A stretch of 64,000 nt of DNA from Limisphaerales bacterium (GCA_965204945.1 OZ242022.1:3797591-3861590); one strand, 5' to 3'; shown: positions 22,051-59,245, counted from the stretch's first letter. Made by a program: numbers and translations. Notes: generated by a model from the letters alone, not told the origin.

Positions 22051-22806
22051 CTACAAAGTGGCGGCTTGGCGGCGTTTCTTTTGCATTCGCCGGCGATAAA
22101 AGAGGACAAAGCCCAAGGCAAACAAGCCAAACACAAGCGCATATTCCTCCGGTTCTGGAATCAAGGCTGCGGGAGTGCTGGAAACCATTACTCGAAAACC
22201 GCTAGAACTCGGCGTGCCCAAAGTGCCGGCCGCCGCAAAATAAGGGCCGAAGATGTAGTTGTAATAATACTCGCCGGCGGTGTTGACAGCAAAGTTGGTG
22301 ATGGATTGAGACAAAGTGCCTTGCCCCCTCCACGAGACGACGTCGTTGGTGGAATAGCTGAGCGAACTTGCCGCGACTCGAATGCCCACGATGTCCACAC
22401 TTCCGTCTTTTTCCATATGAATGTGACTGATGGTTCTGGTGACGGAAGGCGTGGTAATCTGCGGCAAGCTGGCAGAGTTGGCAGTTAAAGAATAATCGAC
22501 CGCACTGCGATTCCCTGCAAAGAATCTAGTGCCGCCGGAGGTGTAGGGTAATATGCTTCCTACTGTCTCGAAACCTGCGACCGATTCCGTTGTGGAGATG
22601 GTGACGGCGCCGGATCGAGAAGCAGTGGAGCTGCCGGAGAACGTCCAGATGGTTGTGTTGGTGTCGCTTTGAAGGGGATTGATGGTGAGAATCAACTGCG
22701 CTTGGCTCTGCTCCAAAGAAACCAAGAAAGCGCCGACACTACCAACGCCACGAAAAGAGACCTATGCCCGCTTGCCGCTTGCATATTGTAAGGATAGCTT
22801 TTTCAT
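22051..22806 (-). CDS. PEP-CTERM surface protein, paralog 3 (5' end disrupted: leader and mature domain not in one clean frame)
   Basis: The C-terminal sorting signal is IPEPEEYALVFGLFALGFVLFYRRRMQKKRRQAATL. The mature ORF runs 22051-22725. ATG 22806 (MKKLSL, like the paralogs) is in frame but hits TAG after 14 codons. A hydrophobic leader (MQAASGHRSLFVALVVSALS, ATG 22784) lies in another frame. Confidence 0.6.
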
Positions 22807-22873
22807 CACTTCAAACATAAAAATAACCGTTAAATAACTGTTCTCCTGACTTTCCTTAAGGAAAGTTTCTTTA

Positions 22874-26275: not shown

Positions 26276-26410
26276 CTACAAAGTGGCGGCGGCTTGTCGT
26301 TTCCTTTGCCAGTGGCGGCGATGAAAGAGAACAAAACCCAGAGCAAACAAGCCAAACACAACTGCGCATTCTTCCGGCTCAGAGATGATGGTGCCGCCAT
26401 GAAAGCGAAG
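26276..26410 (-). pseudogene. orphan 3' fragment of a PEP-CTERM paralog (sorting-signal tail only)
   Basis: The minus strand translates as ...RFHGGTIISEPEECAVVFGLFALGFVLFHRRHWQRKRQAAATL*, which is collinear with the tails of the three full genes. No matching upstream body or start was found. Confidence 0.55.
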
Positions 26411-26619
26411 CGAACGGCAAACTCAATACAACCAATTCCCATCAGCGCAGCAACTAGCCAGCTATATGTCACCAGCCGTGGATCCCCGCAAATACCCGGC
26501 TGTTGGAGGAGGCAGGAGAATCTACAAATCACAAGATACCGACCACGAAGCTATGGTGGTTTGTCGTTTTTGTCGCTTGCCGCACAAACAGCCAAAAAAT
26601 CCGCATCGCCAAACCAAGG

Positions 26620-27370
26620 CTACAAAGTGGCGGCTTGCCGTTTCTTTTGGAAGTGGCGGCGGAAGAGGACAAAACCCAAAGCAAACAAGCCAAACACAAG
26701 CGCGTATTCCTCCGGCTCAGGGATGATCCCGCTGTGAATGCGCAAAGTCACTCCGTCTCTGGCAAAGTTCGGCTCCAACGTCGCCCAGGCCCCCACATTC
26801 TTGATGAAGAAATCCCCAATCGGCTTCTCCAACAAACCTGAACCCACCCAAGAAGACGCCTGCCCATTAAGAAGCCCATAGTTGAAAGTGCTGCTCACCC
26901 GAATGCCAATATTATCGGCGGCAGTCACATCGTTCATGAACATCCGATTAATAGTTCGGTTGACGGGCGTCGTGCCGATGGTGATGGTGGGCGTGTTGGT
27001 GGCGGTGACGGCAAAGACGATGTTGCTCTTGCCGCCGCCCGGAATTCGGGCATTCACTGAAGCGATGTCTAGGCGGTTGGTGCTGGAAGAGAGGGGAGAG
27101 AGGGTGATGGTTTGGTTGGAAGGCTTGTTGGCGTTGTAAATGTCGCTGGCCGTCTGCCAACCATCGGCGCTAGAAGCGTTGCCGCTGGTGCGTAGCGTGC
27201 CGGGGGTTGCGACGGTGGAGGAGCCGGAGAAGATCCAGATGCTGTTAGTGGGGGTATCCTGGCTGGGATAGACATCAAGGATCAACTGCGCCTGGGCGTT
27301 GTCCCCCCCCCCCCCCCCCCCCCCCGCAAATGCAGGCGACGGCGGCCAATAAAGATAGTTTTCGTTTCAT
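26620..27370 (-). CDS. PEP-CTERM surface protein, paralog 1, with poly-G tract in the signal-peptide region (frameshifted as sequenced)
   Basis: ATG 27370 encodes MKRKLSLLAAVACIC, followed by G(23). The mature frame continues DNAQAQLILDVYPSQD... to IPEPEEYALVFGLFALGFVLFRRHFQKKRQAATL*. The track ORF 26620-27285 is the mature part only. The tract must be 3n+1 long to join the frames, and 23 is 3n+2. Confidence 0.75.
27303..27325 (-). repeat. homopolymeric G(23) tract (C23 on plus strand) inside a coding region
   Basis: Counted directly: C at every position from 27303 to 27325. Confidence 0.95.
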
Positions 27371-27401: not shown

Positions 27402-27430
27402 GTTTCTAATCCTTCCTCCGCAACGAGTCA
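27402..27430 (-). promoter_or_regulatory. sigma70-like promoter of PEP-CTERM paralog 1
   Basis: The minus strand reads TTGACT, a 17 nt spacer, then TAGAAA, ~31 nt upstream of ATG 27370, preceded by T-rich tracts. Confidence 0.5.
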
Positions 27431-27540
27431 AGCCCTAAATCCACAAAAAAATGAAAAAAGTTAAGAAAAGTTCTTTGTAAAACGGGAAAAAGCGCAACAA
27501 AAGGGAATTCGGGCTGGGAAAATTCATAGTCTTTCCCCTT

Positions 27541-44945: not shown

Positions 44946-46175
44946 TTATCGGGCTCCTTTTTCGAAATGTACTACAAGGCGTTTGTACCCGTTATGGATT
45001 CGCACCCATTTCCAATAGCTCCGGGTTCTAGCTCCAGTAATCCCTCCGTTTCCGTCATGGAATTGTACCCACATATTTGTATAAGTGGGTTCGGTTTTAA
45101 ATTTCCGGGAGATGCTGTTGCTAATGTCGGGGCCTTGTGTAATCACTTGGTTTTTTTTTTTTGCAAACCATATAGTTTGTTTTTGAATTTGTGTAGGATT
45201 TGAAGTCAAAGAATTCCTGCCGTGGCCTACAATTCCTAATCTTCCGCTAGACAAGAAATTACGGAACTTCCAGTAAAGTTTGCCTTCGTATGTGTTGGCT
45301 TCAGGGTCTTCGGCATCTGCGTGGCCGAGTGCTGACCATCCATCAGAATCCCATATGCTTTTCATCTCATAGTCGTCGACTTTGCGCTCGAGTGTTCGGA
45401 TGTAAGTTTCAGGTCCAAAGAAGAGGTGATTGCCATAAATTCCTCGCCATATCCTAAGCTCTCTCGCCTTATTTCTTGCGTAAGCGTCTTCTCTGCCGAA
45501 AACAGCTGCATCTTGTTTGTAGTACACTGTGCCATCTGGGTTGCGTCCGAACAATTCCAGCATTGAGTTTTTTACGGTGTATCTTGCAGGTGAGAGAAAA
45601 CGCTCAGCTTCCGCAGTCCGCATAGCTGTTCCGTCGATCCGAGTTCCCACTGGGGAGGTATCCCATTGATGTCCTTGACTAGCGGTTTTTCTTCCAGTCG
45701 TCGTCCAGTTTCTTGACCAACTTTGACTAGCAGGGTACCATGTTTTTCGCTTACGGATTTCCGTGGTGGAATTTCCTGTCCACCAAGCCGCGTTGACTTC
45801 GGCTGTGCCTTCTGCGTCGTCGTCAAGTGTTATGCCTCCATGGTGTTCCAGCAATTTCCTTTTAGTCTCGCTCAATGTTTCATTAATGCCCCAACGGACA
45901 GCGGTCAGAACAACGAAGTAGGTAGCGGAAAGTATCAATTGGAGAGGAGTCGCCTTGGCTTCGTTTTGCGTCACTTTGGTTGGAATCAGCAAAATGCCGA
46001 TGACCAACAGGAAAGTGAGTCCAATCAAGCCAATGCGCTTGCGTGTCCAGCGCGATTCCTTCGCCGTTGCCGGCGATTCCGTTATTTCCGATGCAATTTG
46101 CATGGCTTCTTTGGAGACATTTTTCCCCGCGCTGTTGGCGTGGTCAAGATTAATTTCGTTATTTAATGTGCGCAT
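44946..46175 (-). CDS. hypothetical membrane-anchored, Trp-rich protein
   Basis: A single long ORF with TM IGLIGLTFLLVIGILLI and a second hydrophobic segment. It contains an in-frame A(12) run (45151-45162). No family was recognised. Confidence 0.55.
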   Translation of the reverse strand: MRTLNNEINLDHANSAGKNVSKEAMQIASEITESPATAKESRWTRKRIGLIGLTFLLVIGILLIPTKVTQNEAKATPLQLILSATYFVVLTAVRWGINETLSETKRKLLEHHGGITLDDDAEGTAEVNAAWWTGNSTTEIRKRKTWYPASQSWSRNWTTTGRKTASQGHQWDTSPVGTRIDGTAMRTAEAERFLSPARYTVKNSMLELFGRNPDGTVYYKQDAAVFGREDAYARNKARELRIWRGIYGNHLFFGPETYIRTLERKVDDYEMKSIWDSDGWSALGHADAEDPEANTYEGKLYWKFRNFLSSGRLGIVGHGRNSLTSNPTQIQKQTIWFAKKKNQVITQGPDISNSISRKFKTEPTYTNMWVQFHDGNGGITGARTRSYWKWVRIHNGYKRLVVHFEKGAR

Positions 46176-55490: not shown

Positions 55491-57044
55491 TTATTCTTTC
55501 TTTTCCAACTCGGCAATGGCGTAGAGATGCGTCTGCGTTCCCACGTACAGCGTTCCGTTGGCGACGATGGGCGTGGAATAGATTGGCGCTCCGAAGTTGA
55601 CTTCCATCAAAACTTTCTCCTTCTTTGCCGCCTCAAGAATCACAAAGTCGCCGTCCTCGTCTCCCAAAAACACCTTGCCGTCGGCCACCAGCGTCGAACT
55701 CCACATATGCGCCTTCATGTCGTAAATCCAGTATTCCTTTCCCGTGTTGGCGTCTAGGCAGTAGAGAAAGCCCGAATAATCGCAAAGGAAAAGCAAATCA
55801 GTTTCCGGGTCGATGGACGCCGTGGAAATGGTTCGATTGATTTTGTCGTACGTCCAAACGGCGCCGCTTTTGGAAATGTCGCCTTTCCCAGAGGCGTCAA
55901 TGCAGGAAAGCATGCCCAGTCCTTCGCCGTGTTCCGGGTCTTGGCCGATGGCCACGTAAACCCGATCTTTGTAAAACACCGGGGTGCTGATGATTTCGCT
56001 GGGGCCGTCCGCATGCGGATATTTGATTGGTTTGCCGTCTTTGTGCCGATACTTTTCCGGCACGCCGTCGTATTTCCAAATCTCCCGCAGTTCCATAAGA
56101 CCGTCTTCGCCGGCGATTGGTTTCGGATCAAAGGCGTACACAAATCCGTCTCCGGCGCCGAAGAAAACCATCTCCCGGCCGTTCACGTTCCCAAAACCCG
56201 GAGAAGACCAGTTGCAGTGCAGCAAGTTTTGGCTGATCCCTGAAGCCTCCTCGCCCAAGAGCGCTCCCGTGTTTTTGTCCAAAGCCACCAAGCACGGCGC
56301 AAACGGCGACGGAATGTTCAAGTGCGACCAATCCTGCCCGTTGGAAGTCGTCGCAAAAAGCCGATCCCCGGCAATCACCACCGAACTGCTGGCAATGTTG
56401 TGCGGAAACACGCCCAACTCCGCCCGCATGTCAAACACCCACAAAATGTCCGCATCCGTGCCGCCGGGAGACATCGGCGGCTTTCCCTCGCCCGCCATAT
56501 ACTTCGCCTCGTCTTGGAACGGCCCGTCGTTGCCGTCGCTCATCCCCTCGGCGTCCAAACAAAGCACCTCGCACCGGTTGGAAACCACGTAAACCCGCTT
56601 GCCCTCCACAGTTGGCGAAGAGCAAATCCCCAGATATTCCCAATCGCTCACCTTGCCCGCGCCCAACTTCGGCACCACCAACTGCCAAAGAAACTTTCCC
56701 GTCTCCTCTTCCAGACAATAGACAATCCCGCGATCCCCTTTGTGCTTTGGATCGCGCGGCGACTCGTTGTTCGTGCCGACAAACACCTTGCCGTTCGCCA
56801 CCGTCGTGTTCCCATACGCCTGCGAACCCAACTTGGCCACCCACTTCACATTCCGAGTCGTCGACAAGTCCACCTCCTCCGTGCCTCGCTTGAACTCGCC
56901 CGGAGCAAACTCGTGCGGAATCCCCTTCTCCGGAGAATAAAGATTCTTGCTTTGATTTCGCCCCCACTGCGGCCAATCCTCAGACCAAACGGACGACAAA
57001 CAAAAAACCGAAACCAACAAACACTGCGCTTTCCTAGCCTTCAT
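55491..57044 (-). CDS. PQQ-like beta-propeller repeat protein (secreted)
   Basis: The signal peptide is followed by EDWPQWGRN. Repeated propeller blades include GKVFVGT, RVYVVS, DRLFATT, DRVYVAIG and GTLYVGT. Confidence 0.8.
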   Translation of the reverse strand: MKARKAQCLLVSVFCLSSVWSEDWPQWGRNQSKNLYSPEKGIPHEFAPGEFKRGTEEVDLSTTRNVKWVAKLGSQAYGNTTVANGKVFVGTNNESPRDPKHKGDRGIVYCLEEETGKFLWQLVVPKLGAGKVSDWEYLGICSSPTVEGKRVYVVSNRCEVLCLDAEGMSDGNDGPFQDEAKYMAGEGKPPMSPGGTDADILWVFDMRAELGVFPHNIASSSVVIAGDRLFATTSNGQDWSHLNIPSPFAPCLVALDKNTGALLGEEASGISQNLLHCNWSSPGFGNVNGREMVFFGAGDGFVYAFDPKPIAGEDGLMELREIWKYDGVPEKYRHKDGKPIKYPHADGPSEIISTPVFYKDRVYVAIGQDPEHGEGLGMLSCIDASGKGDISKSGAVWTYDKINRTISTASIDPETDLLFLCDYSGFLYCLDANTGKEYWIYDMKAHMWSSTLVADGKVFLGDEDGDFVILEAAKKEKVLMEVNFGAPIYSTPIVANGTLYVGTQTHLYAIAELEKKE

Positions 57045-57388
57045 AATTTAAAACCAAAAAAGGATTACAAATCGCAACCGCCTTTGTCAACCCAACTCCA
57101 CAGTGGCAAAAAGGAAATCGCTTTGGATTTCCCGCCAACCGGAAGACAAATGGAATCCTCTCAATCCATTTCCCCGCCGCAGAACTCCCGCCAACCCCCA
57201 AAGCCTGCTCAAAGCACGGGTTTCCGCAATTCCAATTCCCCGCTCTTTCCGAAACAAAAAACTCCGATCCCAAAAAGATGGAAGCGAAGTTGCTTGAAAA
57301 AACGAGGCCAATTTTTAGCGGAGGCCGAAGCGCAAAGCATATAAGCCGCTAGCATGCATTGCCGGCCTCTGTTTGCCAGCAACGAAGG

Positions 57389-58166
57389 CTACAAAGTGGC
57401 GGCTTGTTGGCGTTGTTTCTTTTGCATCTTTTGCCGGTGGCGATGAAAGAAAACAAAACCTAGCGCAAAGAGGCCGAAGACAAGCGCGTATTCTTCAGGT
57501 TCGGGGATGACTTGGCTGTTGATGGTGACCTGTATGCCACTAAGCGACGTAAAAAGAGATCCGCTAGTGTAAGTTCCCGCAAAGAAGTCCCCAATGGGTT
57601 TGCCGATTATGCCGGCGCCCGTCCAAGCCGAAGATTCGTTCTGGGAATAAGACAAACTGCTCCCAGAAACACGAATCCCTAAGTCATCTGCACTGTTGTT
57701 ATCATCATCCATAAAAAGATGGGAAATGGTTCGGTTGCCGCTGCCGATGGTAATGGTCGGCGTATTGGTGGCGCTGGCGGCAAAGGTGATGTTGGTTCGG
57801 CCGCCGCCCGGAATTCTGGATCTCACCGAGGCGATGTCGTCGGTATTGGAGCTGGAGAACAGGGGAGACAGAGAGACGTTGAGGTTGCTGGGCGAGTTCG
57901 CGATGAACATCTGTCCGCTATTCGCGGAAGCGGAGTTTATCCAATCCCAAGAGTCTTGGAGAAGGAAAGTGCCGCCGCCGCTTGCGGTTCGGATGGCACT
58001 ATTACCCCGAGCGGTAGAAGAGCCGCTAAAAATCCAGAGGGTTTCGCTGGTGGGGTTATCTTGGCTGGGATAGACGTCAATCACCAACTGCGCTTGGGCG
58101 TTGTCCCCCCCCCCCCCCCCCGCAGATGCAGAAGATGGCGGCCAATAAAGATAGTTTTCGTTTCAT
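57389..58166 (-). CDS. PEP-CTERM surface protein, paralog 2, with poly-G tract in the signal-peptide region (frameshifted as sequenced)
   Basis: ATG 58166 encodes MKRKLSLLAAIFCIC, followed by G(17). The mature frame continues DNAQAQLVIDVYPSQDN... to IPEPEEYALVFGLFALGFVFFHRHRQKMQKKQRQQAATL*. The tract must be 3n+1 long to join the frames, and 17 is 3n+2. Confidence 0.75.
58105..58121 (-). repeat. homopolymeric G(17) tract (C17 on plus strand) inside a coding region
   Basis: Counted directly: C at every position from 58105 to 58121. Confidence 0.95.
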
Positions 58167-58201
58167 AAGAATCTATTTATTAACTGTTAAAAATTTCTTT
58201 G

Positions 58202-58230
58202 TTTTTAATCCCTCCTCCGCAACGTGTCAA
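58202..58230 (-). promoter_or_regulatory. sigma70-like promoter of PEP-CTERM paralog 2
   Basis: The minus strand reads TTGACA, a 17 nt spacer, then TAAAAA, with the same spacing to the ATG as in paralog 1. Confidence 0.5.
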
Positions 58231-58510
58231 CCCCAAATCCACAAAAAAGAGAAAAAAGTTAAGAAAAGTTCTTTGGAAAACGAGAAAAAGCGCAAAAAGC
58301 GCAAAAATTCTGCTTTTTTCCGGTTGCGGGAAAAAGTTTTGAGGCGGTTGGCCATCCAAGCGGCAAGGTGGCTTTCGTGGATGAGATGGGCAAGCCAAAA
58401 TGATATGGGTGAGCCAAAGCTGACTTTGGCGTGAATTGGAGGAGCGGGCAAGACAAGGAAACCTCGAAAAGCGCGCAAATTCCATCTTGCTGTTAGCCAA
58501 GCGCCTCCTT

Positions 58511-58738
58511 GCTGTTGCGGAAAAAAGAAAGTTTTTGGAGCGGTTGACGCTTGTTGTGGCCGTGATTTCTTTCTTCCGCAGCCAAGTAGTGAGCGGGATT
58601 CGATTGAAGTATCGATTGAAGGATTGGCGAGCAGAAGAGCGAGAACTGGTTGTTTTGGCGCGCAGTTTGTCGGCTTGTGGATTCTTTGGGTTTGGAGAGT
58701 TTTGACAAATCCAAAAGCCATCTGAGGCGGATTAGTAT
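58511..58738. repeat. conserved ~220-bp upstream element, copy B (partner 27541-27756)
   Basis: See copy A. A partial extra copy of the element's first ~35 nt lies at about 58323-58355. Confidence 0.85.
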
Positions 58739-58786
58739 CAGATAAGTAACGGTTCTGCCGATGGGAAAGGAAGGTTGCGGCGGCGT

Positions 58787-59245
58787 TTATTTCGGGTCTA
58801 AGTCTGACTTTTTCCTTTCTTCCAGCATGACGCAGGCCTCCAGCGCAAGGAGGTAGGAGGCGACGCCGAATCCGCAGATTTGGCCTTGACAGACGGGCGC
58901 GATCAACGAGCGATGCCGAAATTCTTCGCGATTGTGGATGTTCGAAAGGTGAATTTCGATGCTGGGAATACCTGTTCCGCAAATCGCGTCGCGCAACGCA
59001 ATGCTGGTGTGCGTGTAAGCCGCGGCGTTGATGACTAGATAGTCATGGTCGTTGGAAATCTCGTGAATCCACTCGACAAGTTGTCCTTCGGAGTTGGATT
59101 GGCGAAATCCGACTTCGATGTTGCGACTGGCGGCCCGTTGGCGCAACAACGAGGCAATGTCGCTGAGGTTGGTTCTGCCGTAAACTTCCGGCTGTCGGAC
59201 ACCCAGTAGATTCAGATTGGGGCCGTTGAGGTAACAAACTTTCAT
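58787..59245 (-). CDS. aroQ: type II 3-dehydroquinate dehydratase
   Basis: LNGPNLNLLGVRQPEVYG, INAAAYTHTSIALRDA and IEIHLSNIHNREEFRH blocks are present. The start was trimmed to ATG 59245 (152 aa). The track ORF extension overlaps the upstream gene. Confidence 0.9.
   Translation of the reverse strand: MKVCYLNGPNLNLLGVRQPEVYGRTNLSDIASLLRQRAASRNIEVGFRQSNSEGQLVEWIHEISNDHDYLVINAAAYTHTSIALRDAICGTGIPSIEIHLSNIHNREEFRHRSLIAPVCQGQICGFGVASYLLALEACVMLEERKKSDLDPK

Follow-up and report, generated by a model that had tools for sequence, protein, structure and literature searches.

Nearly all work on repeat-driven phase variation has so far dealt with host-adapted pathogens and commensals. The poly-G/C tracts of Campylobacter are mostly G8-G13, the hop outer-membrane protein genes of Helicobacter pylori carry CT repeats in the signal-peptide region, which is the same design principle as that described below, and in Treponema pallidum tpr and Bordetella fim the poly-G/C tracts lie in the promoter. 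In Neisseria gonorrhoeae and N. meningitidis, the 11-12 opa paralogs contain CTTCT/CTCTT pentamers, the number of which differs at every locus between strains (PMC5320596). The chlamydial PmpG proteins are expanded surface paralogs with poly-G in some and poly-C in others, accompanied by scattered frameshifts, pseudogenes and gene conversion (10.1101/506121). An Akkermansia genome paper covers a PEP-CTERM-type topic and a phase-variation topic, but separately, and our literature search found no paper tying PEP-CTERM, exosortase, Verrucomicrobiota or Limisphaerales to repeat-driven phase variation. The DNA analyzed here is a 64-kb stretch (the window; ~25% G, ~26% C) from an uncultured Limisphaerales (Verrucomicrobiota) bacterium, and its subject is a run of 17 G residues (G17) near the start of a gene, referred to as gene B, for a secreted PEP-CTERM-like protein. 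This G17 is very probably a hypermutable repeat, which would act through slipped-strand mispairing as a translational phase-variation switch of a PEP-CTERM-like surface protein.

The features of gene B, in coordinates of the window, are as follows; paralog A is a second member of the family in the same window.

57389-58166, minus strand: gene B, a PEP-CTERM-like secreted protein of 258 amino acids (aa) at G16, split by a +1 frameshift as assembled (from tract resizing, 307 homologs and the open reading frame (ORF) 57389-58087)
58122-58166, minus strand: start codon and signal-peptide n- and h-regions, MKRKLSLLAAIFCIC (91% DNA identity to paralog A)
58105-58121, minus strand: G17 homopolymer, the proposed slipped-strand switch (C17 on the plus strand)
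58088-58104, minus strand: signal-peptide c-region (D)NAQAQ in the downstream frame (94% identity to paralog A; xAQAQ/QSQAQ motif conserved in the family)
58077-58079, minus strand: TGA closing the gene B ATG frame at G17, giving a 29-aa product (from in-silico resizing)
57392-57511, minus strand: C-terminal sorting-signal-like tail VIPEPEEYALVFGLFALGFVFFHRHRQK with PEP motif, hydrophobic helix and basic cluster (I-P-E-P and Y-A columns invariant in the family; AlphaFold2 helix 223-257)
58167-58300, minus strand: upstream cassette of a T-rich stretch, TTGACA (58225-58230), a 17-nucleotide (nt) spacer, TAAAAA (58202-58207) and a 5' leader ending agattcttATG (from conservation between A and B)

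On the minus strand, gene B reads ATG (58166) AAA CGA AAA CTA TCT TTA TTG GCC GCC ATC TTC TGC ATC TGC, and this fifteenth codon is followed by the G17 (58121-58105) and then by DNA ACAACGCCCAAGCGCAGTTGGTG. The ATG (58166-58164) codes for MKRKLSLLAAIFCIC; the tract comes next, and ACAACGCCCAAGCGCAG follows in the downstream frame. Thus placed, the homopolymer, which is beyond ~8, lies 45 nt past the ATG inside the 5' coding region, and the poly-Gly that it encodes separates the h-region of the signal peptide from the c-region. The effect of tract length on frame was computed by resizing the G run in silico. With G16 or G19, the ATG frame extends over 258-259 codons to a stop at 57389-57391 (...GGGGG-DNAQAQLVIDVYPSQDN). 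With G17, it reads GGGGGGQRPSAVGD (= MKRKLSLLAAIFCICGGGGGGQRPSAVGD) and ends at the TGA listed above, and at G15 or G18 a stop is reached after 27-28 codons. The ON state is therefore any length of 3n+1 G, and 17 is OFF. Downstream of the tract, the ORF of 232 codons (57389-58087) is free of further lesions, as is the corresponding 226-codon ORF of paralog A. The first-pass annotation had described 17 G behind the short peptide encoded from ATG 58166, a run that both the minus-strand sequence and a homopolymer scan confirm at 58105-58121, and its statement that the join needs 3n+1 G (16 or 19), with 17 leading to an early stop, agrees with the resizing. The early TGA that it described is present as well; the count of 10 codons given for it is really 9 codons past the tract, a trivial difference.

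According to the homopolymer scan, the C17 at 58105-58121 and a C23 at 27303-27325, which belongs to paralog A, are far beyond all other runs of G or C in the window (the next are C8 and G6). Because base composition predicts only ~1e-5 G/C runs of 17 or more in 64 kb, a chance origin of the G17 is excluded. Codon usage was taken from 14 Pfam-supported genes of the window, in which GGG represents 16.6% of Gly codons and GGC 48%; the Gly triplets in the mature part of gene B (SGGGT, PGGGR) are likewise spelled GGC GGC GGC. Since GGG is a minority codon, the runs of five to nine GGG codons found in more than 30 genes of the family are not a matter of codon chance, and the tract is a DNA-level feature rather than a protein-level one. 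It is extremely improbable that selection instead keeps a flexible poly-Gly helix breaker in front of the cleavage site, to which the DNA homopolymer would be incidental. Such a need at the level of the protein would suit the place of the tract between h- and c-region, where signal peptides often have helix-breaking residues, and the G3-G9 encoded by in-frame members; yet it would account neither for the choice of GGG nor for the two thirds of tracts that are out of frame, and other members have no Gly run at all, with poly-Pro, 7-/8-mers at other leader positions or no repeat. An artifact of Illumina poly-G reads was also considered, and it was rejected as the tract is internal, has continuous coding flanks and recurs, at an identical codon, in numerous genes from several independent assemblies. 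For the 5' region, RNA folding gave no structure signal (z = 0.21), G-quadruplexes being outside the model. The sole other long homopolymer of the window is a T12 at 45151-45162 on the plus strand (A12 on the minus strand), which lies within a mechanical ORF (44946-46175, minus strand) that has no Pfam hit and whose surroundings look AT-rich and possibly non-coding.

In the proposed mechanism, the tract would gain or lose G's during replication through slipped-strand mispairing. At lengths of 3n+1, the start codon and hydrophobic core would be in frame with the cleavage region and the mature domain, and the protein would be exported and presumably anchored by exosortase; at any other length, translation would end after 27-29 codons and there would be no export. 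Because the poly-Gly segment would lie in the cleaved leader, in-frame changes of length would leave the mature protein unaltered. Having a conserved candidate promoter cassette of its own, gene B would switch without regard to the state of paralog A or of the numerous further family members that the genome is expected to contain, and a population would then be mixed in its surface composition. What the sequences show directly is the anatomy, the frame logic, the conservation of a tract of variable length across the family and the existence of out-of-frame copies in other genomes; how fast the tract slips, whether the loci switch reversibly and independently, whether an exosortase brings about surface display and which selective agent (phage, grazers or host) is at work are inferred.

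To place gene B within its family, 5.8 billion proteins were searched, which yielded 307 relatives. The closest of these is at most 69% identical to gene B, and the source genome is thus absent from that protein collection. The N-termini of the relatives are mostly of the form ..C(L/I)C-G(3-9)-(Y/D/V)xAQAQ.., with a varying Gly count, and in many of their gene calls ('MRGGGG..' or '..YETKTIFISGRRLPLRGGGG..' at the beginning) the leader has been translated out of frame. Among GTDB species representatives, a scan retrieved 136 relatives, and the best 80 of these 136 were taken as loci (numbered with L). All 80 come from two complete chromosomes, OZ251460.1 (4.52 Mb) and OZ241891.1 (4.23 Mb), both labelled 'MAG: Limisphaerales bacterium' (MAG, metagenome-assembled genome), which corresponds to at least 40 paralogs per genome. 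A 5' simple repeat that alters frame or spacing is found in ~58 of the 80 paralogs when the remaining short G runs are counted, and throughout the 252 kb of DNA that the related loci comprise, just one G/C run of 9 or more is found elsewhere than at the 5' end of a family gene. The repeats are distributed as follows, with positions being those within each locus.

33/80 loci, G9-G27: pure G tract exactly at the site of the tract in the window
13 loci, C10-C32: poly-C (poly-Pro) in the n-region of a second leader type, MNHEN-Pro(n)-..LEQSQAQ (L014, L016, L017, L038, L044, L049-L051, L056, L060, L073-L075; at about position 1100-1130 in each)
7 loci, 7-20 copies: 7-/8-base tandem repeats directly after the start codon, namely (GAACAGC)20, (GAACAGCG)17, (GAACTGC)9/13 and (TCGGGCA)7/8/11 (L015 1000-1139; L027 991-1126; L035 1072-1134; L053 1044-1134; L039 1147-1202; L061 1059-1135; L065 1087-1135)
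3 loci, G16/14/9: poly-G directly after a -35-like TTGACA (L028, L031 and L032; at about position 1030, ~85 nt upstream of the ATG)
1 locus, G14: poly-G before the h-region

At least six designs are represented, i.e., poly-G after the h-region, poly-G before it, poly-C, three heptamers, an octamer and promoter poly-G. The repeats have arisen independently at different leader positions within one gene family, and since several designs in one family are hard to explain otherwise, this convergence is strong evidence that switchability itself is under selection. In L028, L031 and L032 the tract resembles a spacer-length switch of transcription; no convincing -10 element was seen at a workable distance in these three loci. 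With regard to frame, the G tracts of the first type, including those of the two window genes, comprise 11 in frame, 11 at +1 and 13 at +2, and 11 of 35 is the one-third expected if length is random with respect to frame. All seven genes with 7-/8-mer repeats are out of frame and, because assemblers resolve such repeats well, the OFF copies in the family are real. The first-pass annotation had proposed searching other genomes of the clade for G/C tracts of 9 or more; 33 of the 80 loci carry one (G9-G27) at the same site, so that relatives in two genomes do have homopolymers at this position. Its notion of two switchable copies falls far short in number, as dozens of family genes carry repeats of several designs.

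Tract length varies even between sequences that are otherwise almost the same. Near-identical paralogs L023/L025 have tracts of 13 vs 14 (99.6% identity over 1093 bp), L024/L034 of 18 vs 14 (98.7% over 1059 bp) and L031/L032 of 14 vs 9, the last pair with 0 mismatches in 1097 bp; two further near-identical pairs have equal lengths. The same is seen for near-identical poly-C copies (12/13/14 in L049/L050/L051; 10/13/13 in L073/L074/L075). Between the two species, whose syntenic loci have a flank identity of 85-92%, the lengths are 21/18 and 16/14 where both flanks are shared, and 13/16, 20/27, 9/14, 9/15, 19/21 and 20/12 where one flank is shared. The window can be compared in a similar manner. 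Its aroQ-side flank (58723-59073) and the upstream flank of L012 match at 90%, and the site occupied by G17 in gene B is G24 in L012; L039, the positional ortholog of paralog A, bears (TCGGGCA)8 in another leader type. L012 (OZ251460), the positional ortholog of gene B, also has an internal TGA at ~1638-1640, at a family-conserved Trp (SSAW), in addition to its out-of-frame G24, and may be a pseudogene or contain a sequencing error. Taken together with the 33 of 80 loci and the low share of GGG among Gly codons, the G24 of L012 and the syntenic pairs of differing length support the earlier claim that the tract is maintained and not an artifact.

Independent long-read contigs of essentially the OZ241891 strain allowed three comparisons at the same locus. 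In one, G19 vs G21 was the sole difference in 3156 bp; in another, G16 vs G15 was among three differences in 3155 bp, the others being a single-nucleotide polymorphism and an A6/A7 insertion or deletion (indel); in the last, both sequences had G15. Whether these length differences are biological or stem from consensus error at a site that is hard to call, the tract is the least stable position of the locus. Short-read-type contigs also differ, with G9 vs G8. It is quite unlikely that the frameshifts of the window are simply consensus errors, with true lengths of a stable in-frame G16 for gene B and G22 for paralog A and with constitutively translated poly-Gly-leader genes. The 17-vs-16 call in the assembly is unreliable on its own, both window tracts are exactly one base over, and the related genomes are long-read MAGs, in which one same-locus comparison differs at A6/A7 too; for the gene B locus alone, a miscall is possible. 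However, one-base errors do not make near-identical sequences differ by 18 vs 14, 14 vs 9 or 19 vs 21, they would not make OFF(+2) as common as OFF(+1), and they leave the seven out-of-frame 7-/8-mer genes and the difference in the short-read-type contigs unexplained. Moreover, a run of G16-G22 is intrinsically unstable even if it is in frame.

The great length of the tracts bears on another explanation, according to which RNA polymerase or the ribosome slips on the G run, so that each allele would give a mix of products with graded low expression and no heritable ON/OFF state. Tracts of 13-27, and up to C32, far exceed the 8-9 bp RNA-DNA hybrid and are longer than most characterized phase-variable tracts, and transcriptional slippage on long homopolymers is established. 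It is best documented for A/T runs, however, and less so for G/C runs. Near-identical DNA copies differ in tract length, so the change takes place in the DNA itself, and the 7-/8-mer repeats and the promoter-adjacent tract, which can act at the DNA level only, would be left unexplained. As a full account of gene B, such a rheostat is unlikely; as an overlay on the phase-variation switch it is plausible, since the two mechanisms are not mutually exclusive.

Three other members or remnants of the family are present in the window, all on the minus strand.

26620-27370, minus strand: paralog A, with G23 at 27303-27325 after codon 15 (ATG at 27370, stop at 26620)
22051-22816, minus strand: distant paralog C, of leader type ..LEQSQAQ, with no tract and the same upstream cassette (33-36% aa identity to A/B)
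26279-26413, minus strand: orphan 3' remnant downstream of paralog A, consisting of a PEP-CTERM-like tail only (..SEPEECAVVFGLFALGFVLFHRRHWQRKRQAAATL*) (from synteny with L032)

Paralog A would be ON at G22 or G25, and its G23 as assembled is 3n+2, one base over, which is the same offset as in gene B. Codon 15, a TGC, directly precedes the tract in both genes, in agreement with the identical codon position and different length of which the first-pass annotation had spoken (G23 vs G17), and the restored proteins are 54% identical. At the DNA level, identity between A and B is 86% in the 134 bp upstream of the ATG, 91% in the leader, 94% in the c-region, 60% in the mature part, 78% in the tail and ~55% in the outer flanks. 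The -35-like element of paralog A is TTGACT (27426-27431). In paralog C, codon 19 is an in-frame TAG and the h-region lacks 1 nt compared with L039, so that the gene is probably a pseudogene; at the position of the (TCGGGCA)8 of L039, paralog C retains one GGGCAT unit. The flank downstream of L032 aligns with the window segment 24968-26047 (87%), and by this synteny the orphan tail is the leftover of a family gene still complete in OZ251460. The damage to paralog C, the orphan remnant in the window, the internal TGA of L012, and the mosaicism and fragments in the family would be in keeping with A and B being dead copies as well, in which the tract frameshift was the first inactivating lesion. 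Such decay is very improbable for these two genes, which are otherwise intact over 226-232 codons and keep all family-invariant residues, and which are best conserved in the promoter cassette and leader. Pure tracts also persist at orthologous loci despite 8-15% flank divergence, and neutral decay would have interrupted them.

By inspection, the N-terminus of gene B consists of a basic n-region (MKRK), a hydrophobic h-region (LSLLAAIFCIC), poly-Gly and DNAQA-Q, with a putative signal peptidase I site after AQA; residues 3-14 form a helix in the AlphaFold2 model. A lipoprotein reading of the CIC/CLC motif was rejected, again by inspection, as the residues before either Cys are unlike a lipobox. 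The model, built from 21 sequences, has a mean predicted local distance difference test score of 69 and is mostly beta, with terminal helices that correspond to the leader and the tail. Neither structure nor domain searches found a relative of the ~190-residue mature domain: a fold search of the PDB with the model gave no match better than E = 0.02 (template modeling score ~0.2), and Pfam (E up to 0.01) gave no domain in restored A and B. The mature domain is lineage-restricted, its only matches in a set of 1.84 billion proteins being 120 clusters at 50% identity. An exact DNA search of Joint Genome Institute (JGI) metagenome contigs with the leader and tract of the window gave no match, and a family search in the same contigs gave just two weak matches, to the C-terminal tail. 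In the 90%-identity protein clusters P0020, P0012, P0026 and P0057, the mature domain is common and the leaders, tract contexts and C-terminal tails differ. A shared mature domain with differing leaders and tails points to recombination or gene conversion among the paralogs of the family.

The tail of gene B has the tripartite PEP-CTERM architecture (PEP motif, hydrophobic transmembrane helix and basic cluster). TIGR02595 has no match in gene B at E up to 10, gives 13.6 bits for paralog A vs a cut-off of 16, and matches 4 of 21 family members, with a best E of 0.018; the tail is named 'PEP-CTERM-like' because these scores are below the cut-off. No exosortase (EpsH/Xrt) was found among 18 ORFs of the window scanned against Pfam, the window being 64 kb of the genome. 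The upstream cassette is conserved not only between A and B but also at loci in other genomes, and it is on account of this conservation that it is considered a candidate promoter. Downstream of gene B lies a gene for a BamB/PQQ-like beta-propeller (55491-57044, minus strand), and a promoter-like TTGACA-17-TAATCC site is located within 57045-57130 (minus strand). Because this downstream gene has a promoter-like site of its own, gene B appears to be monocistronic. The remaining genes of the window, among them those for a PSCyt1/PSCyt2/PSD1 protein and a CotH/LTD protein (Pfam), fit a bacterium of the Planctomycetes-Verrucomicrobia-Chlamydiae (PVC) group.

Several observations weigh against the phase-variation switch proposed for gene B. 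No sites are harder to call in long-read assemblies than homopolymers of 15-27 bases, and single ON/OFF states may be one base off; part of the same-locus differences may likewise be miscalls, one of these comparisons also having the A6/A7 indel. RNA polymerase slippage on long G runs could blur a strict ON/OFF distinction. The PEP-CTERM hidden Markov model (TIGR02595 / PF07589) stays below cut-off for both A and B, and it is from the architecture of the protein that we infer a surface location. Lastly, a strict consensus scan for sigma-70 promoters and terminators around gene B found no sites.

There is an even chance, in our estimation, that the stochastic surface-protein repertoire of this uncultured Limisphaerales clade is among the largest known in bacteria; at least 40 PEP-CTERM-like paralogs per genome would share a promoter cassette, each would have its own 5' repeat switch, most would be OFF at any given time, and recombination would reshuffle them. 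If true, a system of the antigenic-variation type would exist beyond the classical host-restricted pathogens, and pressure from phage or grazers would presumably drive it. The repeats are attached to a PEP-CTERM-like family without a Pfam domain, the cargo of which resembles exosortase substrates, and the system may be of use for the study of bet-hedging against phage and grazers in environmental bacteria and of the biology of exosortase cargo. In practical terms, such loci are prone to systematic mis-annotation as truncated genes or pseudogenes, as the gene calls of the relatives show, and the tracts mark sites where a MAG consensus hides population heterogeneity.

Among known systems, tpr and fim resemble L028, L031 and L032 (G9-G16 after the -35-like TTGACA) and not gene B, the tract of which is in the coding region. 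Closer in design are H. pylori Hop and Gardnerella NanH3, where switching abolishes export and not merely activity. NanH3 is reported to have a homopolymer in the leader region of a secreted/surface protein (10.1101/2020.09.16.300947), as gene B does. In contrast to the family described here, Hop and NanH3 involve single or few genes, other repeat types and host-associated organisms. The poly-G/C contingency loci of Campylobacter jejuni (PMC6321876, PMC8437040) are similar in that there are dozens per genome, which give combinatorial 'phasotypes', and in that length varies between and within strains. The Campylobacter tracts, however, are in unrelated genes, many of them encoding glycosyltransferases, whereas here one family carries them at one leader position with G9-G27 (C up to 32).

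The closest parallels are those with Opa and PmpG. Like opa, the present genes form a scattered multigene family of surface proteins in which each gene would have its own promoter and a repeat in the leader-coding region sets the frame; Opa copies switch independently, and their variable mature parts show mosaic recombination, a further likeness. On the other hand, the Opa repeat is a pentamer, Opa is a beta-barrel outer-membrane protein of a host-restricted pathogen, and there are ~11 copies, compared with at least 40 per genome and at least six designs here. Pfam, NCBIfam and PDB fold searches of A and B revealed no homology to Opa, and the likeness is one of analogy. The same applies to PmpG, as none of the Pmp domains PF02415, PF07548 and PF03797 was found in A or B (Pfam, E up to 0.01). 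PmpG comes from the same PVC superphylum, and it shares with the present family the expansion of surface-protein paralogs, the split between poly-G and poly-C, the scattering of tract lengths and frameshifts across the tree and signs of pseudogenes and gene conversion alongside the tracts; the Pmps differ in being autotransporters of ~600-1700 aa, only some of which have tracts, in obligate intracellular pathogens. With ~58 of 80 paralogs in two genomes carrying a 5' repeat, the scale of the Limisphaerales family rivals or exceeds that of Neisseria opa and chlamydial pmpG. The mechanism, classical slipped-strand phase variation, is thus already known, and it is the scale and the taxon that are unusual.

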